Positions 35,441 through 63,584 of a stretch of DNA of 64,000 bases are shown here, piece after piece. The stretch is from the NCBI GenBank assembly GCA_964016885.1, contig OZ024748.1, positions 55,614,001 to 55,678,000 on the forward strand, given 5' to 3'. The DNA is from Eledone cirrhosa (lineage: Eukaryota). The stretch's first letter is position 1. The number at the start of each line of letters is the position of its first letter. Made by a program: the position numbers and the translations under genes. The notes under the pieces are model-generated. The model was not told the origin of the DNA. It was given only the letters and a program-made list of their open reading frames with translations, and made no database searches.

Positions 35441-35489
35441 CTCTCCTGATTTGTGGCCTCTCCATTATCTGCAAAATATATATATATAT

Positions 35490-35605
35490 AATTGTTTCTA
35501 CTTTTGGCACAAGGCCAGCAATTACCCAGTGCATTACTGATACTTTATTTTATCGACCCAGTAAGGACGAAAGGCAACGTTAACCTCTGCGGGATTTAAA
35601 CTCAA
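35490..35605 (-). mobile_element. SINE family A, 5'-truncated
   Basis: aattgtttctacttttggcacaaggccagc...gggatttaaactca. Confidence 0.85.
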
Positions 35606-35939
35606 TATATGTGTGTGTGTGTGTGTGTGTGTCAATTTATCTATCTGTCTACCTTACTTCCTCACTACCATATCTGTCTATCTACATATATATTCGTGGA
35701 TGTGCTGTCTATTTATATTCCTGTGAACACTTCCGATGCGTTTCTTTCATATCTAATACTAGTATATAAGTTTATGTTCATTAGCAGCTTGTTAAACCTG
35801 ATAAAACTAATCTACAACCAAAAAGATTCTTGCTCTATCTATGCTGACTTTTGAAATAGTGGCGCATTAGTTCGTTTGTTATAATATCTAGGATCAATTT
35901 TTTGAACGGTATTATATATTTGAATCGACTTTAATTATA

Positions 35940-36132
35940 ATTTCTATGATAGGCACAATGCCAGTAATTTTGTGGGAGGGGGAAGTCGATTAAATTGACC
36001 GCAGTACGTAACCGTAAGGATGAAATGCAAAGTTAACCTCGGCGGGATTTGAACTCAGACCGTAAAGGACCGTAACTCTATGCTGCAAAGCATTGTTTTC
36101 GACTCTCTACCGATACTGCCAATCCACCACCC
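35940..36132 (-). mobile_element. SINE family A, long form
   Basis: ggcacaatgccagt...gggatttgaactcag...ctgccaatccaccaccc. Confidence 0.85.
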
Positions 36133-36722
36133 TTGAATCGACTTGGATAATAAAATTATATAATATAACATTTTGTAGTTTGTGTTTAGCTATGCGTGTG
36201 ACTGAAACCGGCCCTCCCTCTCAGTCCCTGGGTGAATTTTTCTTGCATGACACCCGTCCAAAGCTTAAATACTTTGGCGCGCACATTCTTACCAATATAA
36301 CTGGATTGTTTTCTGACTACGCTATTTAGACGTTAAGGTGTTAAGATAGTACAGGTCTATGATAATAGATATGACGAATCTCGTATGACTTGGTATTTAG
36401 TTTAATTATATACCATCAGTCCCAATGGGAAACTAAAAGGCGACTTAATGCTGAAGGAGCAATACTTTGAATGTTAATACAATTGTGTTGTTGACATTAC
36501 ATTATTAAAACCTTTCTGTTTTTCTTCTTTATTTTACTGCATGAAGAAACTCGTACCTCTGGGAACAGAACAGAGAATAAGGAAAGTAAGAGAAAAAATA
36601 GGAATAAAAGAAAGCAAATGAAATATAAATTTGTCATATTTGTGACGGAATTTGTATTATGTATTTGCTACGTATATATGTGTATATATGTATATATATA
36701 TATGTATATGTATATCTGTATG

Positions 36723-36774
<52 letters not shown>

Positions 36775-37061
36775 TAGGTATACATAAATATAAATATAAA
36801 TATATATATATATATACATAGTGTGTGTGGGTTTGTCAGATTGGCTGGGTATGCATGTATATAGATATAGAATTTTATATATATATATACACGCATATAC
36901 ATATATGTATATATATATGTGTGTATATGTATATATATATATGTATATACATATATATATATATATGTGTGTGTCTGTGTATATATATATGTGTGTATAT
37001 ATATATGTGTGTGTATTTATATATATTTGTGTATATATATATATGTGTGTATATCTATATC

Positions 37062-37092
<31 letters not shown>

Positions 37093-37170
37093 ATATGTAT
37101 ATATATAATGTATATATGTATATATATAATGTATATATATATATATATAATGTATATATATATATATATA

Positions 37171-37214
<44 letters not shown>

Positions 37215-37324
37215 ATAATAATAGTAATAATAATAAATTTGAAGACTAAAATCCAAAGAGGGCTCGATAAGGATAAATATATATCAAATATATAAGAATC
37301 GTAGAGCAAATATTTATTAAAATA

Positions 37325-37400
37325 ACAGATTAAAGTTTAAGCAAATAATCGCTGCTTTCACCCTTAACGGGATCTTCTGAAACTAACAAAGTCAATCTGT
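37325..37400 (-). ncRNA. Extended type I hammerhead candidate with non-canonical core CAGAAGA (U4A)
   Basis: ACAGAUUGA-cuuuguu-AGUUU-CAGAAGA-u-CCC-guuaa-GGG-u-GAA-AGCAG-cgauuau-UUGCU-U-AAACU-UUAAUCUGU. All three stems pair, and stem I has an internal bulge. Confidence 0.65.
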
Positions 37401-38285
37401 AAACGCAGAAGTGGATATTTCAAAAAACATTGCAACCGGAGGAAGACAGGAAGACGATACTTTGGTTCGTGGAAACGTTCCCTGGCAAAGAACGGGAAAA
37501 AACGAATATAATACGTCATTAATAGGAGCAGTGAAAAACAATTACGCGCAAATACAGAACCACGTTTATGGTATAAAAGAAGTCGTAGACTAATGTTCTC
37601 TTAGGTGGTTCATAGAGACGTTCTCTGGCAATGAACGGAAAAAAACGAAGATAATACGTCATATGTGGATCGTGGAGAACAATTGCACGCAAAGACAAAA
37701 CCACGCAAATGGTATAGCAGAAGTCGTAGACTAAATTCTAACTAGGAAACCGAATGAATCTCTGCTTCAGAGTTAAGAATAAAGTAAATAAATACAATAC
37801 AGGGGTAATAGAAATTAAATAAATGCATACACACATTCAAATACGTACATACACAAGCATACGCAAAACCCTTGCCATAGGTATACAAAACCACGCACAT
37901 ATAAATATGTGTGTGTGTGCGTGTATACAAATAAATAATTAAATAAACGTATATAAATAAATAAATACGTATATAACAAGCGCACCCACATACCTACATG
38001 TAAATACACAAATGTTCGAAGACGTAAGTCAGCCAAAACATGAAGTACACATATACACACACCCTACAGACGTACGAACCTGCATACACACGCAGACGCA
38101 AAACTCCCGTATACACATAACCAAACCATATGTACCAGAAAATATGAAAAAATGTATACGCCACAACATAATCAATCAAATATACGTATGAGAAAGTATA
38201 CGTACCTTCACAAAACATACAGGTAATATATACTTACCTATGCAAATAAGTAATGGTATAAACAAAACATATACTTAGCTACCAT

Positions 38286-38543
38286 ATGACGTCACTTTCA
38301 GCTTATATCTGGAGTCTAAAAGATAACCACACCCAATTTAAGTTACACTGGGAGATCCTAGCTAGGGCTAGATCGTATAACGGAAATAAAAGACCATGTG
38401 ACCTCTGCGCCGCTGAGGCCCTGGAAATACTCTACGCCACAGACCACATCTCAAACAAAAACTCTGAGGCAATTTCGGCTTGTAAACATAAATTGCACAA
38501 AACTTTCCTGTATTACAGCCCCACATTATACCCTAACGGATAG
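38286..38543 (+). pseudogene. C-terminal half of a Penelope-like GIY-YIG endonuclease
   Basis: TSLSAYIWSLKD...LHWEIL..ARSY....CDLCAAEALEI.......NKNSE.ISACKH matches the T-x-LS-x-YIW-x-LK / W-x-I / C-x-LC-x2-E / N-x3-E-x4-C-x-H pattern of PLE endonuclease C-termini. Confidence 0.85.
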
Positions 38544-38646
38544 TACGATCTATACGTGGATTTTTTACGTCTTGATGTTGTAGCTAAGTATATGTTTTGT
38601 TTATACCATTACTTATTTGCATAGGTAAGTATATATTACCTGTATG

Positions 38647-39927
<1,281 letters not shown>

Positions 39928-42530: not shown

Positions 42531-43547
42531 AGAGACAAGCATCTGCTCATTTAATCACAGAAACAAGACTACAAATACAAGAACGGAAGATATCAGAATG
42601 TTTTCTAGAGCGACGTTATTAATAGTACTGTCGGCAGTAGTCGCAAACACAGCAATAAGAACCACAATGAGAAGCATACTTAAAAATACGATCTTTTTCA
42701 AGAAAGGATTTCTGCGTTAGAAGCAGAATGTTTGTATGTCGAGTGGTTGATATACTTTTAATATAACAAAAGTGCATCTGTAGACAACTAGATATGTGTC
42801 AAAGATGTATATGTAGCTATAGTTTTCTCTAAAAGAATTCAAGGACGAGATAAATTTCACCAAATAACTGAAGCAGTGAGGGTTTTCATATGGCAAAGGA
42901 ACATATTCCAAAAGACAAGGAAAGATTCTGATATTTAAATGTATATTCCTCACAGTACAGAGAATATTACACATCACATTGACATGAAGAATGCGAAATA
43001 GTAAATGTATGATAAAGAATCACATATGCAATGTTAATTAAATACTTACTGCTAAAGCTACTCTCAAGTTTTAGACACAGATCAGTCCTCAGGATTAAGG
43101 TCATTCCACTCATATCCATCCAAAATTTTGTTGAAACTCGAAGCAACCAGAACTGAATTATCCGAACTAGCCTTCAATTCATAAAACAGTATTTGGGAAT
43201 TTGCCTAATATTTTGCTACTAAATATATCGCATGAAGCTTGTCAAATTAATTTTAGTCTTGCTGTATCAAACGTACTACATTTATAGCCGGGGTAGGGCA
43301 TTTTCACATGTACCTTCTTCGTTTTCGTACGCAATTTTTTTTAAACACTCTGCATTCTTGAGACAATGATTGCATTATATGCAGGATGTGTAGGACACAA
43401 TTAAATACATTGGTTACTATTATGAATAAATGTGAGTGGAAATAGACTGAAGCAGGTGGAGAAGCTTAATAATCTTAGGGACATTTTCACGAGTAATGGA
43501 AGGCAGGTTGCTGAATTAAATCAAGAATTGCTAGAGCTGGTACAATA

Positions 43548-43697
43548 ATTGTTTCTACTTTTGGCACAAGGCCAGCAATTACTCCAGTGCATTACTGGTA
43601 CTTTATTATATCTACCCCACAAGAAAAAGTTAACCTCGGTAGGATTTGAAATTAGAACGTAAAGGGCCATAACTCTATGTTCCTGCCAATACCGCCT
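43548..43697 (-). mobile_element. SINE family A with internal deletions
   Basis: aattgtttctacttttggcacaaggccagc...ctgccaataccgcc. Confidence 0.8.
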
Positions 43698-44075: not shown

Positions 44076-45027
44076 ACACATAGTTCACACATCCAACTAC
44101 TCCTATTTATTCCTATTCATCTATGTTTCTCTCTCTTTGTCTCTCTGTGTAATATATATATAGTGTGTGTGTGTAGAATATCTCCAATAATTTTCAGGAT
44201 ACAAGTAAGTAGCAGCAATAACATTTAATCAGAATCTGATGTGGCTTGTAATGATTACAAGAAATTTATGGCTTCAATGGAATGTAAAATATAGACGAAA
44301 TAAAGGACGGGTGGGCGATGGAAAAGAAGGGGAGGTAAGAAGATTGTTACAGTGCTAAAGTAGACAGTGTGTATATGTATATGTGCATTCACTTATTTGT
44401 ATGTATTTATGTCTCTGTTTATAAAGAAGTTACATTGCGTGAAATATGGATAGATGTGTGATGTTTGTCATATTGAGTATCACACTTATAAGAAACCTAT
44501 TTGTTCTATGAGTTTGCGTGTATAAATGCATGTAGGCAGAAGTTTCTATTGTTTGGGGATGTCTGTGTGTTCCTGCTTAATTGTTGCATATGTATGTGTA
44601 TATACACTTGTCAAGCAGTATTTATAATAAATGTGAATGTATGTGACTGCGCCCGTATTTCTTTCGGGTTTCGGCAAGTATATGAACTGTATTAAAGTAA
44701 ATATACAACAAAACCACATACGTATTTACCAATTCGTATCATTCTCCTGCCGCTACAGAAATTCTTGCATTTAATTATAAGCGATTCGTTACTCAGCACG
44801 TCTCTAGATCGTAGGCTATTAAGCGATAAAAAAAAGAAATTTTTTTTTTTTCGAAAATGGCGATGTTTAGTATTCCAACCTAGGTGCTGAACCAGGTTAT
44901 TTCAATAATGGCTTTGTTAACAATAAATGCGTTTTTTTTAATGAATTAGTCCATAATATGAAATATGAATGCATGAGTTCGTATCATTTGCAAGTCAAAA
45001 ATATAGATTTATATATTATATACATAG

Positions 45028-45167
45028 CAAAGAGTTACGGCCCTTTATGGTATGAGTTCGAATCCCGCCGAGGTTTACTTTACCTTTCACCCTTACGGTG
45101 TCGATAAAATAAAGTACCAGTAATACACTGTTTTAATTGGTGGCCTTGTGCCTAACGTAGAAAAATT
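45028..45167 (+). mobile_element. SINE family A, 5'-truncated
   Basis: gagttcgaatcccgccgagg...gtcgataaaataaagtaccagt...ggccttgtgcc. Confidence 0.85.
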
Positions 45168-45199
45168 ATGTACATAGTGATACATGGCGAAACACACAC

Positions 45200-46721: not shown

Positions 46722-46893
46722 TATCGGTAGAGGGGCGGACGCCATGATTTGCAGCATAGAGTTACGGCCCATTATGATCTGAGTTCAAATCCCGCCGAGG
46801 TTCACTTTGCCTTTCATCCTTACGGGATCGATAAAATAGAGTACCAGTAATTCATTGGAATAATTGCTGACCTTGTGTCAAAAGTAGAAACAA
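46722..46893 (+). mobile_element. SINE family A, short form
   Basis: tatcggtagaggggcggacgccatg...gagttcaaatcccgccgagg...aaaagtagaaacaa. Confidence 0.9.
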
Positions 46894-48249
46894 ATATTTC
46901 TTTTCTGTTTTACAATATGTCTTGCTGATTCTTTGTTAGTTCTCCCAGCCCTATGGAACACGAAATATGTTATACCCTCTGTTCAATTGACTTATATCAC
47001 CAGTAATTAATATGTTATGCTATTTTTCCTACTGAATATAGCTTACAATTTCTTAACTTGTACACTGACATTTAAGTTTTCTTTAAGGACTGGTGTCTCT
47101 AACAGTTTTTTATTTTATCTAGGTTAAGTGGTTAGCTGTTAATATACTACTGTGAGAATGTATCACACCTTCTTCCTCACTTCCTAGGGTATGTAATTTA
47201 AGTTAAACAACAAACTACATTTTTATTGTAAATGTGATATCACTCGACACTACAATGATCAGTAACATCTACTCCATTGGAGATGTTTCGCCCTAGGCTA
47301 AATCTTATCGAGCTCATTTATACTCAAAGATATTGTAACTATAACCATTTTCACATTTTAGGGATATCCATAACTACATTATATAATACTTTTATTTTAA
47401 GACGGCAATATTTTATATGAGGGAAATAGGACTATTTTTTGGTGAAAAAAAGCCACTGAAAATAGAAGTCACAGCAAAGTGGTGTTCTTGATTCAAGGAT
47501 TTGTTATTCGAACGAGACATTCAATAGAAGACATGCGAAAAGGTTTTCAGCAAATGGTGGTCAGTCATTTCGTCTCGCGTAGCGTTTAGAAAATGCCATT
47601 AACTCGTAGTTGAATGAGCTCGAGTAAGAACTAGTGTTTTATGTTTCTTTCAGGTTATAATTCAGGCTGCTTTTTACATTTATCCTTTCAGAGTGCTCAG
47701 GTATACTGTTTCGTGGTTTTGTACCACAATACGCAGAGGAAAATAGTCACATCACACTGCTATATGTTAAATGTACTGATAAGCTTTTCTAGTGATAGAA
47801 CAAGAGCTGAAATATAATGTAAGTATATCGCTTTTATCAGATAATAACTAGTAATTGTATTTGCTATGAGACTGCTTCTTATTGTGAATAATACTTGTCT
47901 GAAACTCTTACACGTATTCATTCCAAACTCTATGTGACTTTCGATGCTGTTGTCCCTGAGCTTTAAATATATTAAGACCTGATCTTTAAAATGGCAGACA
48001 ATATGAGTATAACTGTTTTGTTGTGTTGAATGATGACTTTTTTTCAGAGACGTTTATTTTACTGGCGATATGTTGATACAAGCAGCTAGACATATACTGT
48101 GTAATATTGAAACGATCGTATTGTACAGCATTAATAAAGAGATACAATATATATTTCGTTTTTTCTCTCTCTCTCTCTCTCTCTCTCTGTAACTATTGGT
48201 ATCACTTTTTTTCTTCCTCTCACTGTTGCTCTCTCTCTCTAAGTGTATG

Positions 48250-48355
<106 letters not shown>

Positions 48356-49689
48356 TGTGTGTGTCTATATATATATATCCGTATTTATGTAACTAAAATT
48401 ATCATCTCAATCGATGGTAAACCCACATTCATCATAGTCATGAATAATCGGGAAAACGTTTCTAATCTCCAAGAACGGATGAGATTAGCAGCAAATCAAT
48501 ATGGTCATGTTGTTTTGCATAACAAGAGGTGCACTTATGTATGCAGCTATGAGATTTGTTTGCATGCAATGTCTTTTATTGAAGATAATTACTTTTATGT
48601 CGAGCGCAAGACAAATGAGCTTCATACTTATTGTCTAGCAGGATGTCTATAAGAAAGGTTATCCATAGCAACATACATATATATTATATATATTATGTAC
48701 GTTTATATATATATATATAATGTTGTGTGTATATATATAATATATATATGTTTGTGTATGTATATACGTGTGTGTATGCATGTATATATATATGTTTGTG
48801 TATGTATGTATGTATCTATATATATATATATGTTTGTGTATGTGTGTATGTATATGTATATATATATATATGTGTGCATGTGTATGCATATATGTGCGTA
48901 TGCATGTATATATATATATATGTTTGTCTATGTATATATACATGTGTGTATGTATGTATATATATATATATGTGTGCATGTGTATGTATGTATGTGTGTA
49001 TGCATGTATATATGTGTATGCATGTATATATGTATGTGTGTGTATGCATGTATATATATATATATGTGTGTGTATGTATGTATACACACACAAACACACA
49101 CTAAAACACGTACTACTGACTGTGTGGATATGTGTATGTTCTAACAAAGAATAAGATAGGTATAGTTTGAGAAGCAATGGATGATAAGTAGAGGGAAAAA
49201 CTAGTGTGTAAAGAGAAAGATAGAATGTTTTTACTATTGCGTGGTATCGTAGAATACATTTCAAATTCGAGTTGAATCGTCTAGTGGCCAGGAGAATAAT
49301 GCTACTTAGAACCCCTGCTTTACTAAACTACCTCACACAGACAGACAGAGAGATAGACAGACAGTGAATGAGAGAGAGAGAGGGACAGTGAATGAGAGAA
49401 AGAGAGACAGACAAACAGTGAATGAGAGAGAGAGAGAGAGGGAGACAAACAGTGAATGAGAGAGAGAGAGACAAACAGTGAATGAGAGAGAGAGAGAAAG
49501 AAAAGGAGGATAGAAAGCAAGCAGACAGAGAGAGAGAAAGAGGACAGTGAGAGAGATAGAAAGAGAAGGACAGCGAGTGTGATAGAGACAGACGAGCAGA
49601 CAAATACACATATATATATAAAAACAAAAGAAAACTTCTAGATATATGTGCTTACATCATAATCCATGAGAACATTGTGTCTGTTCGAA

Positions 49690-49858
49690 GTATCAGTAGA
49701 GGGTCGGACATGCTTTCCAGCGTGGTTACGGCCCTTGCCATTCTGAGTTCAAATCCCCCCAAGGTTGACTTTGCCTTTCATCCTTACGGGGTCGATAAAA
49801 TAAAGTACCAGTAATGCACTGGGTAATGCTGGCCTTGTGCCAAAAGTAGAAACAATTA
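49690..49858 (+). mobile_element. SINE family A, short form
   Basis: agtatcagtagagggtcggac...gagttcaaatcc...ccaaaagtagaaacaatt. Confidence 0.9.
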
Positions 49859-50442
49859 TATCTGTTTGATCACAAACGAAATAACGTATCGTTACAATTT
49901 CAACGTGAAAGAAATTCCTGTGGTACAAAACCTGTGTTTAAATTAGTTAGCAGTGATCACATTATATATGTGGTGAATACTTTTGCTTGACTCGCTTTCA
50001 ATAACATAAGTTTTATTTGGGTTATAGCAAGTAAAATTATTAAAGCACCCTCCTACACACACACGTTAATTAATATATCTCAGTATTGAGTACTTATATT
50101 CGTCCCACCTCCAGTAACCCACAAGTTTACGGAAATAATTGAAGAAACGAATATACATATACATATATATTAACTTATTTTATTTTATTACTCTCATATA
50201 ATGTTTAACCCTAATCATCAGATCTGTTGCATACCTGTAGCTCAATATATAATCATATCATGCAGCCGTTACGTGATCCTGCAATTCTAATATGTTGTTT
50301 AACTGAAATATCTTCAAATATTTGCAACTGCACCCATAGATTTGAGAATACCTCAATTTCTGAATCATCCTGCAAAGGATGAAATAAAAGGTTGTGTTAA
50401 AGTCTATCTGTTTAAAAAAATGTGCTTTGCTGTTAAATATTG

Positions 50443-52877: not shown

Positions 52878-53307
52878 TAGAATATACGTACCCAATGATC
52901 CACGTGTTGGGATCGAACCCGTTGCCAAAGTTTCGGAAAATGCCATTAGAATAGGATTCCTCTATATTATTCCTCCTCTCAGCATTTTGTATGTAGTAAT
53001 ATTTGTAATTCTGTATTTCCTTAATGTATCCGTTATTCCGTTCCTTAAACTTATATACAGGGTGGTCCGAATGTCTTGTCACCCCTACCAGAAAGTAATG
53101 AGAAACAGTTTATGTTCCCATCGCAGTATCGTCCTCTTCGGAGGAGCTGCTTTGCCGAATCTTGCAGTGAAGTAATGTCACACATCCTCCATGCTCTTAC
53201 CAGAATACACACGATCATGTCTCCGTACACATACAAGCAGCCTCTTTTCCAAACTTTAGTAGCTCTGAAATAAATAGAAAATTATATTATTATTATTATT
53301 ACCCCGG

Positions 53308-54022
53308 CCGGTGGATTGGCAGTATCAGTAGAAGGTCGGACGCCATGGTAGGGCGGTGGATTGGCAGTATCAGTAGAGGGTCGGACGCCATGTTAGGGCA
53401 GTGGATTGGCAGTATCAGTAGAGGGTCGGACGCCATGTTAGGGCAGTGGATTGGCAGTATCAGTAGAGGGTCGGACGCCATGGTAGGGCGGTGGATTGGC
53501 AGTATCGGTAGAGGGTCGGACGCCATGGTAGGGCGGTGGATTGGCAGTATCGGTAGAGGGTCGGACGCCATGGTAGGGCGGTGGATTGGCAGTATCGGTA
53601 GAGGGTCGGACGCCATGGTAGGGCGGTGGATTGGCAGTATCGGTAGAGGGTCGGACGCCATGGTAGGGCGGTGGATTGGCAGTATCGGTAGAGGGTCGGA
53701 CGCCATGGTAGGGCGGTGGATTGGCAGTATCGGTAGAGGGTCGGACGCCATGGTAGGGCGGTGGATTGGCAGTATCGGTAGAGGGTCGGACGCCATGGTA
53801 GGGCGGTGGATTGGCAGTATCGGTAGAGGGTCGGACGCCATGGTAGGGCGGTGGATTGGCAGTATCGGTAGAGGGTCGGACGCCATGGTAGGGCGGTGGA
53901 TTGGCAGTATCGGTAGAGGGTCGGACGCCATGGTAGGGCGGTGGATTGGCAGTATCGGTAGAGGGTCGGACGCCATGGTAGGGCGGTGGATTGGCAGTAT
54001 CGGTAGAGGGTCGGACGCCATG
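53308..54022 (+). repeat. 16 x 45-bp tandem array of the SINE A 5' head
   Basis: Unit gtggattggcagtatcggtagagggtcggacgccatggtagggcg at 53311+45n; the last unit (53986) continues into a full SINE body ending about 54170. Confidence 0.95.
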
Positions 54023-54170
54023 CTTTCCAGCATAGTTACGTCCCTTTACGATCTGAGTTCAAATCCCGCCGAGGTTGACTTTGCCTTTCATCCTTACGAG
54101 GTCGATCAAATAAAGTACCAGTAATGCACTGGGTATTTGCTGGCCTTGTGCCTAAAGTAGAAACAATTAT
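53983..54170 (+). mobile_element. SINE family A, short form
   Basis: A-box, B-box gagttcaaatcc, central domain and (att)n tail. Confidence 0.9.
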
Positions 54171-54192
54171 TATTATTATCATATATTATTAA

Positions 54193-54412
54193 AGGGCGGT
54201 GGATTGGCAGTATCGGTAGAGGGTCGGACGCCATGCTTTGCAGTATAGAGTTACGGACCTTTATGATCTGAGTTCAAATCCCGCCGAGGTTAACTTTGCC
54301 TTTCATCCTTACGCGGTCGATAAAATATAGTACCAGTCACGCACTGGGGTCGATTTAATAGACTTTCCCCTACTCTCAAATTACTGGCCTTGTGGCTATA
54401 TAAGAAACCATT
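54193..54412 (+). mobile_element. SINE family A, long form, full length
   Basis: gggcggtggattggcagtatcgg...gagttcaaatcccgccgagg...ggggtcgatttaatagactttcccc...ggccttgtgg. Confidence 0.92.
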
Positions 54413-54524
54413 ATTATCATATATTATAATTAATGATATATTATATTATTAAAACAGAAAAAAATGAAATATAAAACAATATGTGACACGGGGTGACAAG
54501 ACTTCCGGACCACGTCAGGTTATT

Positions 54525-54835: not shown

Positions 54836-55919
54836 GATTTTTCATTCCTTAAAAAAAAAAAGGATTTTCGTCACTGTCTTCTCTTTTTCAATTCATATTC
54901 TATTATATATACATATATACTCTACCTATTACATATATATCGGACGAATGAAACAGTTCTAGTCCTGTAGAAGTTATTTCTATATAAGATAAAAAATATG
55001 TGTCTGTCAGTCGGAGAGAGAGAGAAGGAAAGACGAGTTTTTATCTATAATATATATATGTATATTTATTATATGAACATATTAAAGTTTAAGCTAAGAA
55101 TCGCTGCTTTAATCTGTTCTTATAATAAATATTTGCTCTACGGGTTATATATATATATATATATATAACATATTAATATATGTGGTTGTATGCTCGCATA
55201 AACGTCCTCCAATCAGTCACGCAGGCATACACACACTAAATGAGAATGCTAGTCGGGAGACATGTGCATGGCGCCTTTTCATGTGATTGACATGTTTGCA
55301 ATACAAGGTTCATTAACCTGTGTCGATGAAGTACAAACTTCAGCTACACACACATACAGATAGAGAGGAAGTATTTTACATGTTTGAAAGCTTCTCTGTC
55401 TTCATAGATATATTCTCACGGACTATTACTGTTAACTCACCTTGTGTGCCCTTTTTCTAATGGTTCTTATCTCTGCTTTTCCGTTCAAAACTCCTTACTC
55501 TATTTCATGATTTTTTAAATTCTGCTGAGATCGATTTCAGCTCTCACTCTCGGGATTTCCAGAAAAAAATTAAGTACTCCTCAAATACTAAATTCAGTTT
55601 AAGCAACCTTTCCTTCCCCCGAAATATGTGGCCATGTACAATTATAATAAATTAGTATCCCGTATTGCCAGTTAAGGAGGAAAATGCTTTGTATTGGATG
55701 TTTCTATTATAATTTATTTCGTTTGTTTTTTAAATATTAGCTATAATATTGCATATGTGGCAAGTTTTAGAAGAGTAATTTGTTTGAGAAGCTCTGTTGA
55801 GAATCAAGATAACATATACAAGGTACTCATATATGGGTCCCTGTGAATAGTAGCCTTCATGTAATAACCTCCACGGCCCTCTGTTCGTATAACGAGATAA
55901 AATGTGTCTAATGACTGTA

Positions 55920-56200
55920 ATGACTGTAAGAACATATGACAAATAGAAACACTACAAAACCAACAACATTGTATTTGTCATATGTTCTTACAGTCATATA
56001 TATATGTAAATCCAGCCATGCAATATTAGTAATATAACTTTCTCATCCTTAAGTTGGTTTTTGGAACATAGTTCAAGAAAGATATTTATCTAAAAGATCC
56101 ACCATTATACGTCTAAGTAAATATCTTTCTTGAACTATGTTCCAAAAACCAACTTAAGGATGAGAAAGTTATATTACTAATATTGCATGGCTGGATTTAC
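55920..56200. repeat. Twin hairpins flanking a short TA tract
   Basis: Inverted repeat about 55920-55945 / 55972-55997 and perfect ~83-bp inverted repeat 56006-56088 / 56118-56200. Confidence 0.9.
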
Positions 56201-57750: not shown

Positions 57751-58637
57751 TATATATAGAGAGAGAGATAGATATAGCATTCGCACTCTCTATATGTGTA
57801 TATATATATAGAGAGAGTTATATATATATATACACACATACAAACTCTGTCTATGTGTAGATAGAGAGTGTGTATGTGTGTGCATTTGTGCTCATCCATG
57901 TGTGCACACATTTGCGTGAGAAAGTGTGAATAGGAGGGGAACCCCCCCCCCCCCTGCATTTGTTATGTTATCGTTCATTAACCAGTCACTTGCTTAATCG
58001 TCTTTGTTTACTTTCTTACTTAAAGTTTTAGTAAGAAAACTATCGCTTACTTAACGTTCCAGCTGCCATCAAATTAGATACCGCAACTCTTGTTTTCACT
58101 AATGAAAGCAAAACATGTTGTTTCTGTCTTATTTGGCAGGTATTCGAAAAATCTGGAGTATTCCAATTACAGTGAACTTAACATATCAGTCGAGTTCACG
58201 GCATTCAGACACACGTACCAATTCCTTTATGTTTTTGTTCGTACGCAGATACATACTTATATATATGAAAGTAAAGATAATTACAGAATTACGGTGTCGT
58301 GTCAAGTATATAAAGCATATAGATATGCACACACCCATACAAAAACGAACCCGTACAATGTTTCCTCACAATGTGAGGTATGTATGCATGTAAACATTAT
58401 ATATATATAGTATATATATAAATATAGTATATAAAGTATATATATATAGTATATATATATATATATAGCTTATTTAATAGCCTTTGCTTTCAGTACATCT
58501 TTCCTTGGCCCTTTTCCACTCTAGTAACACACCTCATTAAATCATACACTCTGTATTCACACATGGATGCAACAAACGAAAACGTAGGTGAAGCAACACC
58601 GAGTTTATGATTGTAATGATGATCATCATTATGGTAA

Positions 58638-58737
58638 TAATTGTTTCTACTTTTGGCACAAGGCCAGCAATTAACCAGTACATTACTGGTACTTTATTTT
58701 ATTGACCCCGTAAGGATGAAAGGCAAAGTTAACCTTG
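58638..58737 (-). mobile_element. SINE family A, 5'-truncated
   Basis: aattgtttctacttttggcacaaggccagc...aaggcaaagttaacct. Confidence 0.85.
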
Positions 58738-58911: not shown

Positions 58912-60511
58912 AACACAAACACGCATAGAAAAAACGAAAAATTAAGATATTTTTTATCCTAACAGCCGTCCCTACATTTACGGATATATATATGCATACA
59001 TACATAGATACGTGTGTGCATATCATATATAGATTTGTATACATACACACACTTGTGTGTGTCTGGTAAACAGCAATGAATGTTAGCATTTATGAACAAC
59101 TTATTGAAGCATCTGAAAAGCGAGAATCCTTTTAAAAAACCAAATAGGTCAGCATCGCTTGTTTTAATCTCTAGTTTATGTAGCTTTAAGATGATGAGGA
59201 TTAAGCCTCTTTTGTATAGTAGAATGGTGTCTAATAGTGCTTTAAAATAAGATGTCTGCGAGATTTATTTATATCATAAACGCAACCAAAAGAATAACGA
59301 CTTTAAATTTTCTGCTTATATGATTAATTAAAGCAATATAGCTAATCAAATTAACATATTAAAAATCGAAAATCAGAGGACACTATTTATGATTCGCAAT
59401 AGAAGATATTAACCATTTTCATACCATAGTTTCTTATGAACGACAACGCAATATTCTAAAATAAATTTGAGAATAATCACGTGTTGGAGAGGTTTAGTTA
59501 TATATCTAATTTTTTCTCATTTATTAATTGTTATTTAAAAAAAAAAAACTTAGTGTTATTGTTCATATATAATATTAAGTGAATGTTTCAGATGAACACA
59601 CTTTACGACAATTTTCTGTCTTAGAATCAGATCTATTAAAGATTTGAATATGAAATGTGCTCAAAGGTGGAAATTATCTTGCTGTGAAGTAAATATTATC
59701 GCATGAGGATGAAATGTTTTGGCGGAAGAGCGGAGTAAACACACTGTCAATCAGGATTTGAATGTTTGGATCTATACATTCTAAAGACATGTGAGAAAGT
59801 CGCCACATTTCCCTCAATTTATTCTTGTGTTACTATTTCTCAGGAAGTAAAGAGCAGAACAACACACATTAAACCTTTATTTTTTAGTGTAGTAGAGACA
59901 AGTGGACGGTTAGGAGGAATTTATCCTCATATTTGTGGCTTGTGCGGAAATTATGCAATAGAAAGTATTCCATTAAGTGTACTAACAGGCCAGGTAATTT
60001 TCTTAAACGAGGTGACAGATTAAGTCGACATATATAAATCAACGACATGACAGTCAGAGTAATATTTTCTTTATTTATATATATTTACAATCAGGACATC
60101 TGAATCCAAACAATAAACGTAAAGTCATAATATCATCATTATTAGAATCCGCATAAAAAAAAAAAAACATGAATTATTAACATTCTTTACGTGTAGGTAT
60201 GTGTGTATGAAACAGTGTTTGTTGTTGTTGCTGTAAAGGTGAGGTGGATATATGTGATTGTTTTGGTTGTTGTAGATAGGTACCTAATTCCAAGTGTTTA
60301 CCGATGTGTCCGAACAAGGAAGAGCCTAACTCCCACTGTCATCGCCTCTATCTCTCTCGCCCTCCCCATCTTTCTACTTATATGTTCTAGTGGCGTTTCT
60401 TGGGACATTTGTTAAACCTGGATACAGCCACAGCCTATTTCTTCTAGAGAAGGATAGTGTGGAAAAATTAAGTGAGAAAGAGTTATAGAGGAAGAATCGA
60501 TCGCAGTGGTA

Positions 60512-60648
60512 GACTGGTACTTATTTTATCAACCTCGAGAGGATGAAAGGCAATGTGGATCTCGGCAGGATTTGAACTCAGAGAGCCAAAACGAATGCAG
60601 TAAAGCATACTATCCGACGTTCTAACGAACCTGCCAATTCGACGCCCT
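60512..60648 (-). mobile_element. SINE family A, degenerate
   Basis: actggtacttattttatcaacc...ggatttgaactcag...ctgccaattcgacgccc. Confidence 0.8.
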
Positions 60649-62607
60649 ATTTAACATTATACACGCTATATGTACGACAGCTTTATTCTGTCTGTTAATT
60701 ATATCTACTATGTTTTTTTTATTTGTAATCGTTTCATAACGTCTTAGAAAGCCCAATGAGTCATTGGTTCATTGATATACAAGCTATTGCGAGACGGGAA
60801 GCATGTGTAAAGATCTTTCTGTGTTCTTTAATTCATGTAAGATCCGGTTGGAAATTACATCAGAATTTAGACTAAGTTGCTGTTTCTTGATGAGGTGGAA
60901 TTTACGTGTGAATATGTTAAGTTCCTTGAACATATGTCATTTTATACTTTTCTACATTACTTCAAGTATAATGTTATCATCATAAACTTAATGAGTTAGA
61001 TTGCTTTGACGTGTTGTATTGAATGCAATAAAAATATGAAAAATACATTTGAATGTTAAACTGACAGCAACTAGCACCTTTAATTTTCATTATCATTTTA
61101 AACAATTATGTTAATATTGGGGTATAAAAACAATGTTATACTTACATTAAAGACAAATAGAAACATGAAACAGACGAACCTCGTAAAGGACGATACCAAT
61201 TACAAGATAGATTTGAAGAATATTGAACGTAAATCAAAGTAGAACACAACGAAAGTTGACTTTTCTGTGTCTCATTTATCAAGAATGAAATTTGTATTCC
61301 AAGAACAAGTTTATAACACATTAGTAGTGTGATTAAAAACAAATACAACATGAATCGATGGATGGATGGATAGATAAATAGATGGATACATAAATAGATG
61401 GATAGATGGATAGATAGATAGATAAATAGATAGGTAGATTTAAGTAGAATGGCTGTGACACTTGATTTGTTCGGAGAACGATATTGCACGGACGAGTTTA
61501 AATTAAAATGTGTTCTTTTATCCTCCGGCTCCTTTCTTTTTCCCCTCTCTCTCTGATCTCTCTACCTCTTTACCATTACCTCTCTTCCCCTCCCATTTTT
61601 ATTATTCCCCTCCCTCTCTTCTATCTATCTATCGATATATGTATATATATATATGTATATGTGTGTATATATATATTGTGAAAATATATATATATATATG
61701 TGTGTATGTATATATGTGTATATGTATATATATGTATATAATTTGAGACAATATTCAAGGTTTGTATAATACTTCCCTTTTTTAATTCACCATATTTTCA
61801 TCTATTCTTGCAGTTATTGCTATGCTATGCTATGAATTTGTTTACCTAAGGCTATATTAACACTGCTTCGAGGTACGAGTTATGAACAAAATCTCCCTGA
61901 AGCGAAATATATAAAAAAAATTCTACAGAGGATTGAACAGAGAAGTCTTACTATATATAATAATGGATCATCTTTTTAAGTGAAGAGATAAAATTGAAAA
62001 TATTTTAGTATATATTTCTATTATTTGGAGGTCATAAATTGTAAGACATTTCTATTCATATAAAAAGTAAAAATAGTTAATGTTTCGTCGTTTTACTCTT
62101 TAACGAACATTATGGAAAAATGAAAGTGTTGTTATTCTTAGGGATAATAGTGGTGACGCAGAAACCCTCCAGCTTGCTCTAATTCTGTACTTAACACATT
62201 TAAGAAATTTCGAATACTTCAAATTACATGAAATAGATTTTTTTTGGCACTCTCGAATTGGTGATTATAATGCTTTGGAAGAAAAAAAATTAAATCAAGA
62301 AGAAGCATGTTTCTAAAATTGAGGTTTTTGCATATTTTAACGTTTTATAATTGATTTAAATATCAATGTATAGCTAATAGTGAGTCTTTTATATATTTTG
62401 CAAATATAACATTTTTGATGAAGGGTCATATACACCGTGTGTAAACTAGTGTTGAATAGCTGTGGTGATATTCATTTTGGCGAGTGTCAACCTAGGACGT
62501 TTCTTCATTTAAAGGGAAGTAATCACTGATGACACGCCCACTCTGTATTACTGACGTATTTATCGGATGGGATTCGGGGGGGGGGGGGGGAACCGTGGAA
62601 AGTATAA

Positions 62608-63078
62608 AAATCCCGCCGAGGTTAACTTTACCTTTCTCCTTACGGGGTCGATAACATAAAGTACCAGTAATGCACTGGATAATTGCTGGCCTTGTGCCAA
62701 AAGTAGAAACAATTATTATTATATATATATAATAATTATTATTTTCGCATATAGGTAGCAGTATCGATAGAACGTTAGACACCCTGCTTTGCAGCATAGG
62801 GTTATCGCCTTTTACGTTCTGAGCTCAAATCCCGCCGAGGTTAAGTTTGCCTTTCATCCTTACGAGGTCGATAAAATAAGGCATCAGTAATGTACTGGGG
62901 TTGATTTAATCGAATACCCCCCCCCCCCAATTACTGGCCTTGTGCCTATAGTATTAATTATTATTAAAGTCAATATAATTCAAATATAAAATGCTTTATT
63001 TTATCGGGGTCGGTAAAATAAAGCACCAGTAATCCACTAGGGTAATTGCTGGCCCTGTGCCAAAAGTAAAAATAATTA
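62608..63078 (+). mobile_element. Cluster of three SINE A copies (short-truncated, long, short-truncated)
   Basis: Copies at about 62608-62715, 62752-62952 and 62995-63078. Confidence 0.85.
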
Positions 63079-63584
63079 TTTTTGCATATATGGTCTATGT
63101 TGCGAGCGTTAGACTTGTACGTATATAAGCTATGAATATCACGGGTCCTGGATTAGTTGACAGATTCTTTAGAGGATCACACACATGCTTGGCAATATGG
63201 TCTGAGGTCTACTCAAAGACTATATTTCAATATAAACTTTCGAGATCGATAATATAAAGTAGCACTCACATTAATTTCCAGCCTTGTGCCTATGGTAGAA
63301 ACATTAATAGTTAATAATGTAATATAACAATAATAGTGCTTTTGCTGGTGATGTTGGTAGGGGTTTAGAGCGTTGAGTTCGTGTCCTTGGAGTTGTTCTA
63401 TCTAAACATAAATTTGTTTTTCATATTTTAATTTAGATTTTGGTTCTTTTTTTCTGTCATATACTATGACTCTTACTCTTCCTCCTCCTTTTACTTTTGT
63501 TCTTTTCTTATTTTTTTTTTCCTTTTATTCTTCTTTATCTTTGTATCTTTTTTCTTTTTTCTACTCCTTCATCTCTTCCTCTGC

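Follow-up and report, generated by a model that had tools for sequence, protein, structure and literature searches.

A dead two-armed Penelope-like insertion in Eledone cirrhosa and the probable copying of one sense RNA from both sides of its target

How does the end of an endonuclease gene come to lie between perfect inverted repeats, one of which leads away on the opposite strand to a hammerhead-shaped motif? The question is raised by positions 37,215-38,648 of a 64,000-nucleotide (nt) stretch of Eledone cirrhosa DNA (assembly GCA_964016885.1, contig OZ024748.1), here called the window, whose numbering is used throughout. We find here a dead insertion in (TA)n, two-armed and truncated at its 5' end, of a Penelope-like element (PLE) of the Hydra clade that exists in many copies. 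In itself the locus is ordinary debris. Head-to-head insertions of this family, read from their DNA sequence, probably form when two reverse transcriptases (RTs) copy a single sense RNA, unspliced in the case of this locus, from either side of the cut target and the complementary DNA (cDNA) ends are joined.

Coordinates prefixed r count nucleotides from the ATG of L077, an intact copy of the element. On the element sense strand the order at the locus is (TA)n, inverted r1871-2235, r2167-3220, (TA)n, with the following parts:

36670..37214: (TA)n-rich target, left flank
37221..38282, minus strand: long arm, r2167-r3220, the unspliced 3' untranslated region (UTR) or pseudo-long terminal repeat (pseudo-LTR), apparently begun at the outer start site
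37221..37310, minus strand: tail between the recurrent 3' ends (37310 = r3131, 37273 = r3168, 37221 = r3220)
37325..37400, minus strand: type I hammerhead-shaped motif of 76 nt, drawn by eye, core CAGAAGA-U at 37379-37372
38214..38282, minus strand: left copy of the 69-bp overlap, r2167-r2235
38283..38287: head-to-head junction, four of five bases compatible with both arms
38284..38648, plus strand: short inverted arm, r1871-r2235, the end of the open reading frame (ORF) and 105 nt of UTR, joining (TA)n directly
38286..38543, plus strand: endonuclease C-terminus remnant, 85 codons, with CxxC, conserved E and N, and CxH
38580..38648, plus strand: the other copy of this overlap, on the right
38649..39170: (TA)n-rich target, right flank

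The perfect 69-bp arms reported by the original prediction are confirmed, with 69 of 69 positions identical (E 6e-29 when the window is compared with itself); judging by the base that most family members have at 38283, the true overlap appears to be 70 nt, with a mismatch at its edge, and microhomology probably lay at the head-to-head junction. The long arm runs on the minus strand from 38282 to 37221 and is followed by a few extra bases and then (TA)n, in which a target-site duplication is unresolvable. The recurrent 3' ends at r3131, r3168 and r3220 would be reverse-transcription start sites. A PLE endonuclease C-terminus had been placed at 38286-38543 on the plus strand, and a remnant of 85 codons and a stop is indeed there, in a stop-to-stop frame that opens at 38262 and whose first 22 nt are inverted-arm sequence. 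It comprises the C-terminal half of the endonuclease only, with the GIY and YIG motifs outside it, has two private amino-acid changes relative to the family and gave no Pfam match; it is identified as PLE endonuclease because longer family copies show it. The mismatch-free arms had also been taken to indicate a recent insertion. This is not supported: divergence of the locus from the family majority is 1.2%, while two samples of copies have medians of 1.3% and 1.9%, which makes the insertion one of average age, and zero mismatches across 69 bp has a probability of about 0.07 at the mean arm divergence.

Undoing the inversion had been predicted to give the ORF end, a UTR of about 1.1 kb, the hammerhead, about 110 nt and (TA)n. 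We searched the 3.0-Gb animal assembly with the ORF end, which gave 477 candidates, 40 of them scored at 97-100%. At all 29 other top loci fetched, the ORF end continues into the reverse complement of the left arm (at 25 in a single unbroken piece through the hammerhead), so that the predicted order is the native one, with a UTR of about 1.09 kb and about 105-120 nt between hammerhead and (TA)n. Forty 9-kb stretches picked on an RT segment define a unit of 3.26 kb (3,261 nt in L077) with a 41-nt leader, a 709-codon ORF and a 1.09-kb UTR. The expected full-length copies with RT and GIY-YIG exist, and one of the 18 that carry the exact start motif, L077, has an intact ORF. The locus itself, proposed as a link to the autonomous parent of short copies in the window, holds 85 of 709 codons; the short copies do come from this PLE family, but intact ORFs lie elsewhere.

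The L077 ORF encodes 709 amino acids with a telomerase-like RT and, at the C-terminus, a GIY-YIG domain that carries an IVY...YIG motif. Its structure model has a pLDDT of 86.5, and the five best fold matches are all telomerase RTs. Sequence profiles gave less: Pfam GIY-YIG at 1e-5 matches one of 22 aligned members and not L077, the full ORF has no relevant match in Pfam, and a search of PDB sequences with the 22-protein profile returned nothing significant. Among 7,995 sequences scored, 454 are homologues at E 0.001. Hydra-clade motifs are present in the L077 ORF and 21 homologues, namely, with L077 positions, RWR at 37 (homologues have either K or R as the last residue), DKT in place of DKG at 115, a CxCx5C linker (CNCRNRVDC at 564), CxxC (CDLC at 662) and CxH (CKH at 690), while the CCHH motif is absent from L077, which has one Cys between IVY and YIG. 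Partial tandems (pseudo-LTRs), inverted 5'-truncated copies and a tail are found as in endonuclease-bearing (EN+) PLEs, and (TA)n is seen in the flanks of the locus and in most printed 3' flanks of arms, a preference with no background count. By motifs and description, with published proteins compared by eye, the parent is assigned to the EN+ PLEs of the Hydra clade. The element is very abundant, with tens of thousands of copies; exact genome matches, which are not counts of insertions, number 35,405 at r3099-3126, 15,194 in the tail and 775 at the start codon.

Two observations were made beside these copies. Unrelated RT frames neighbour some of them (L099:5271-6326, L070, L073, L093 and L100), one Penelope-like and the others LINE-like by eye. 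At L076:2063-2163 one arm shows about a dozen T-to-C changes on the sense strand in a span of 100 nt, as if the antisense strand had undergone A-to-I editing; none of 497 segments exceeded the threshold for hyper-edited copies.

The long arm contains an intron in two forms:

37482..38237, minus strand: GT-AG intron of 756 nt, donor 1 (AG/GTAAGT) at 38237, acceptor polypyrimidine-CAG ending at 37482, retained at the locus
37482..38205, minus strand: alternative form of 724 nt, donor 2 (AAG/GTACGT) at 38205
37463..37734: two-copy duplication of about 143 bp (82%) of the acceptor region
38253..38255, minus strand: possible transcription start, weakly indicated by the 5 donor-1 spliced arms of 83 whose ends lie at r2194-2196

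Recurrent deletions in the copies join r2211 or r2243 to r2961, exactly at splice-site sequences, and show the GT-AG ends, polypyrimidine tract and exact removal expected of a spliceosomal intron. Genome-wide, exact junction matches number 203 for donor 1 (4.4%), 70 for donor 2 (1.5%) and 4,309 unspliced, so that 273 of 4,582 (6%) are precisely spliced and 94% keep the intron; no spliced genomic match uses the duplicated upstream acceptor copy. Spliced copies are intermixed with unspliced ones across subfamilies and haplotypes (33, 30 and 56 rows). Both spliced junctions were found in contigs of public runs, whose library type is unrecorded and which may include the assembled sample; the head-to-head junction of the locus is not among the public-run contig matches listed. 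Taken from DNA copies, these data point to splicing of the element RNA. The 301 nt from acceptor to start codon contain no ATG (shuffle P 0.008), the intron holds 20-21, and of 30 leader instances (not de-duplicated) 28 directly follow the r3220 end, which together fit an intron in a 5' leader, such as that described for D. virilis Penelope (PMC2377424). At least 58 of 135 spliced-junction arms extend upstream for about 390 nt or as far as the fetched sequence goes; since many extend into the upstream ORF, ORF-containing RNA appears to be spliced too. The pile-up that hints at a transcription start is weak, as near-limit clusters occur with donor 2 too and nine rows at r1817 are a windowing artefact. 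At r2231 (window about 38218) lies an upstream ATG that opens a short frame; it is retained when donor 2 is used, whereas donor 1 would drop it if transcription starts near r2195.

We collected 113 head-to-head junctions of the family, 89 with both outer ends visible and 24 cut by the fetched stretch, and separately sampled 93 arms by the tail motif; of the 81 among them with a 5' end inside 600 nt, 45 adjoin an inverted arm. In 67 of the 89 pairs both outer ends fall at fixed sites (22 pairs have an end elsewhere), and in 64 of these 67 the two sites differ, where about 30 same-site pairs would be expected under independent choice; r3131 with r3220 is the commonest pair (55/89). The arms of a pair agree at 275 of 288 subfamily columns (95%, against 70% in the control) and have rare variants in common at 4.9 per kb, nine times the control value of 0.54. 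Splice form is also concordant: wherever one arm is spliced, in 24 pairs of 24, the other shows the same form (16 donor 1, 8 donor 2), and 12 further pairs are unspliced on both. Among the 81 sampled arms with a 5' end inside 600 nt (12 longer ones were left out), 31 arms from the outer start stop at r3118-3150, i.e., at the inner start. Finally, the arms are often not nested, at this locus as elsewhere, which excludes a simple fold-back on the cDNA. Paired start sites, shared variants, splice concordance and non-nested arms together argue for one sense RNA primed twice.

At this locus the endonuclease would have cut (TA)n on both strands. One target strand would have primed at the outer start, r3220, and run for 1,054 nt, while the other would have primed further upstream, at r2235 (a rare internal start or the product of a later deletion), and run to r1871; displacement by the first cDNA of 69 nt of the second would leave the perfect arms. 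The inserted RNA would be uncut and mostly unspliced. Spliced RNA would likely serve translation, the UTR doubling as 5' leader of the next tandem unit, from which splicing would remove the 20-21 upstream ATGs. Short copies would be early stops of the same reaction. For the whole scheme we lean, with less assurance than for the double priming itself, towards PLE head-to-head arms arising from two enzymes on one sense RNA with two fixed starts, introns surviving via unspliced RNA and not antisense, and a hammerhead that does not cleave but persists as a structural landmark next to the inner start, in a family of tens of thousands of copies.

Several points weigh against this scheme. The loci were gathered by several different searches and are a non-random sample, and splicing, start sites and ribozyme state are all read from DNA copies alone. 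The arms of a pair differ by 37.6 per kb against 41.4 for random copies, so that the shared-variant signal is small. Long overlaps, of hundreds of nucleotides, would need extensive strand displacement by the enzyme, and subfamilies may harbour source loci that are already spliced, against which the star-like tree does not speak. The hammerhead fold, at -12.3 kcal/mol, lies 2.8 above the predicted minimum of -15.1, proximal stem I has a probability of 0.07 and the fold a z of -0.8, and the family copies are too alike for covariation. At this locus the inner start, r2235, is atypical, the family norm being r3131, and only two of eight inspected arms with internal outer ends (this one and that of L197) join (TA)n directly, which makes a later deletion here a live alternative.

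In that alternative, which concerns this locus only, an ordinary r3131 and r3220 insertion later lost r2236-r3131 of its short arm by deletion into (TA)n. We regard it as possible, though less likely than not. The predominance of the r3131 and r3220 pair would be in its favour, as would the position of the r2235 end in a TA/TG-rich patch beside a long microsatellite, with target microhomology of just about 1 nt; but the end in L197 lies only 12 nt away and is also on (TA)n, and no remnant of the lost part is found on the right flank.

The double-priming reading involves uncut RNA, and the state of the hammerhead bears on it. The motif at the locus is hammerhead-shaped by inspection, as originally described, but its core is non-canonical, a point absent from that description: A replaces U4 at 37378 (CAGAAGA instead of CUGANGA), while the GAAA, the NUH and every other core position are as expected. 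In the motif, stem I has 9+5 bp and a bulge of 7 nt, stem II (CCC/GGG) has 3 bp, and U-GAAA is followed by stem III of 4 bp, with a predicted cut after CUU at 37339 on the minus strand; Rfam gave no hammerhead at the gathering threshold in the whole window or at the E-value threshold in 37200-38700. The change is fixed in the family, with A at position 4 in 105 of 109 aligned rows (some loci twice) and exact core matches genome-wide of 17,572 for A4, 72 for U4 and 46 for C4, the U and C patterns being looser. A subfamily with a canonical core was considered and rejected, the U4 count being near that of the C4 control and partly junction-made (11 of 30 examined U4 rows begin at a truncation junction). 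From its sequence the U4A hammerhead is likely weak or dead, and the fixed change is predicted to cripple self-cutting.

That the motif is instead an active variant, rescued by tertiary contacts or by the element protein and trimming tandem transcripts, seems to us rather doubtful. The three stems and the stem-I bulge are retained with the rest of the core, contigs under a second organism label also carry A4, some natural variants of the core, U4C among them, keep residual activity (PMC3088659), and in Anolis the PLE hammerhead needed protein to cut (PMC11167929). Yet a full mutational scan of a different hammerhead found low activity for every single change in the CUGA turn (PMC9901934), the canonical Hydra hammerheads of File S2 all have U4 (PMC8557442), and retention within the family is no proof of selection, as young copies are alike at every base. 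Moreover, none of the 81 arm 5' ends lies within 3 nt of the predicted cut, and the ribozyme cut was rejected as the origin of these ends. A separate observation is that 5' ends and near-perfect palindromic junctions cluster at a self-complementary TTCAGAA heptamer in the core (37382-37376; L294, L303, L312, L315, L323 and L325), which could reflect a polymerase stall or end-joining microhomology.

An unlikely origin of the arms themselves is that a dimer copies, one per strand, two RNAs that share a source locus or are tandem units in a single transcript, with the splice form inherited from already-spliced loci. Tandem junctions exist (the 30 leader instances above), long overlaps would then arise without strand displacement, the subfamily agreement of the arms fits equally well, and the two splice forms differ in haplotype mix. 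Taken alone, two RNAs leave unexplained both the different start sites in 64 of 67 pairs and the stopping of outer arms at the inner start, and separate spliced sources of both forms would be required in several subfamilies. Still less credible is that the arms come from self-priming on an antisense template or from the cDNA folding back, and that this accounts for the retained introns, an idea put forward in PMC3846280, which in its consulted part leaves antisense and unspliced sense templates undecided. Near-palindromic junctions do occur, many at the TTCAGAA heptamer, and retention of the intron in 94% of matches would follow; against this stand the 273 precisely spliced matches, which obey GT-AG on the sense strand, and it is splice concordance, together with the non-nested arms, that argues against the idea.

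The copying of one sense RNA from both target sides would extend to the short copies in the window, for which a separate hammerhead family, P1, had been proposed:

15975..16136, minus strand: short copy, r3059-r3220, lacking most of the stem I 5' strand and altered in stems II and III
23069..23292: short two-armed copy, r3068-r3131 inverted and joined to r3060-r3220, with an extra core change, A6G
55062..55167: older two-armed copy (11-12% diverged), r3083-r3131 inverted and joined to r3106-r3167, first core half absent

They had been said to carry the hammerhead and terminus of the left arm. The terminus is shared at all three sites, the last 60-160 nt of the arm recurring at 15975-16136 and 23069-23292 (96%) and at 55062-55167 (85-88%), but none has a complete hammerhead. 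The 5' ends of the 81 arms spread continuously, with 31 at r3118-3150 and eight at r3055-3068, where the copies near 16 and 23 kb end. The short copies are thus 5'-truncated ends of the same element, and tandem monomers each with a complete hammerhead, the mark of a retrozyme, are not seen among them. That they are a separate non-autonomous family, retrozyme- or SINE-like (short interspersed element) and mobilised by this element, is most improbable: the cluster at r3055-3068 and the ratio of 3'-end to start-codon motifs (about 45 to 1) would suit it, but they have no sequence of their own and no tandem monomers, their ends differ in each of the three, and lengths are continuous.

Earlier work has already described this type of element, with its inverted ends, tail, leader intron and hammerhead. 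In a search that left most of the subscription literature uncovered, we found no paper on fixed U4A PLE hammerheads, spliced genomic copies of PLEs, or PLE twin priming or paired starts. The part of PMC8557442 consulted describes hammerhead function as unclear and intron retention as of unknown significance. The two rare splice forms are a natural RNA barcode which, with the fixed starts, makes the template question testable from DNA alone, and the one-letter core change turns the ribozyme question into a simple assay.

The window contains other repeats. Self-comparison revealed a second dispersed family with many copies of 100-370 bp, at 75-95% identity and in both orientations:

7724-8860, 35476-35604, 35911-36138, 43540-43679, 45026-45181, 46722-46904: second-family copies
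49689-49866, 53979-54431, 58625-58737, 60495-60661, 62608-63091: second-family copies, continued

A near-perfect 45-bp tandem array at 53306-54022 adjoins one of these copies. Palindromic or inverted stretches unmatched to the PLE lie at 17378-18680, 56006-56200, 1002-1241 and 2596-2782, and a diverged tandem repeat region at 5957-6662.

The arms resemble the products of LINE-1 (long interspersed element 1) twin priming, in which two primers on one RNA give a 5' inversion with a small junction duplication or deletion. Here, by contrast, the start sites are fixed, there is no poly(A), the enzyme is different and overlaps reach hundreds of nucleotides. The closest system for the reaction is Poseidon PAc of Anolis (Frangieh et al. 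2024, PMC11167929), which also initiates internally at two sites that define a tail and, in vitro, has both target strands cut and extended, as proposed here; uncut RNA is its main substrate, and hammerhead mutants do not block insertion in vitro. PAc starts lie inside the ORF, about 30-40 nt apart, whereas the two putative main starts here are separated by 89 nt and lie upstream of the ATG, a third site being minor; the PAc study draws no connection between its pair of sites and the paired arms of a single insertion (PMC11167929).

The Hydra clade, including Hydra-1_Obim (Craig et al. 2021, PMC8557442), has the same single ORF of about 710 amino acids with RW[KR], DKT and the CxCx5C linker, the same lack of CCHH, CxxC and CxH around E and N, the (TA)n target, and a type I hammerhead near the 3' end with an extra U before stem II and before GAAA. 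Clade members are generally <3 kb, a trait that is not strict, and the present element differs in its 3.26 kb (3,261 nt in L077, about 2.5 kb spliced), its U4A core, its tens of thousands of copies and its intron, none being mentioned for Hydra in the consulted part of that paper (PMC8557442). Its N-terminal sequence differs by eye from that of Hydra-1_Obim, which makes it a different family. Metazoan non-LTR retrozymes (consulted part of bioRxiv 10.64898/2026.07.22.740005) are also short hammerhead-bearing repeats related to PLE ends, whereas the short copies here are non-tandem and lack a complete hammerhead. D. virilis Penelope and Chlamys-3_cRei likewise have a spliceosomal intron in the pseudo-LTR or 5' leader that most copies keep (PMC2377424, PMC8557442), but the Penelope intron is described as 75 bp (PMC2377424), whereas that of the present element measures 717-756 nt, has two donors and is exactly spliced in about 6% of junction matches.
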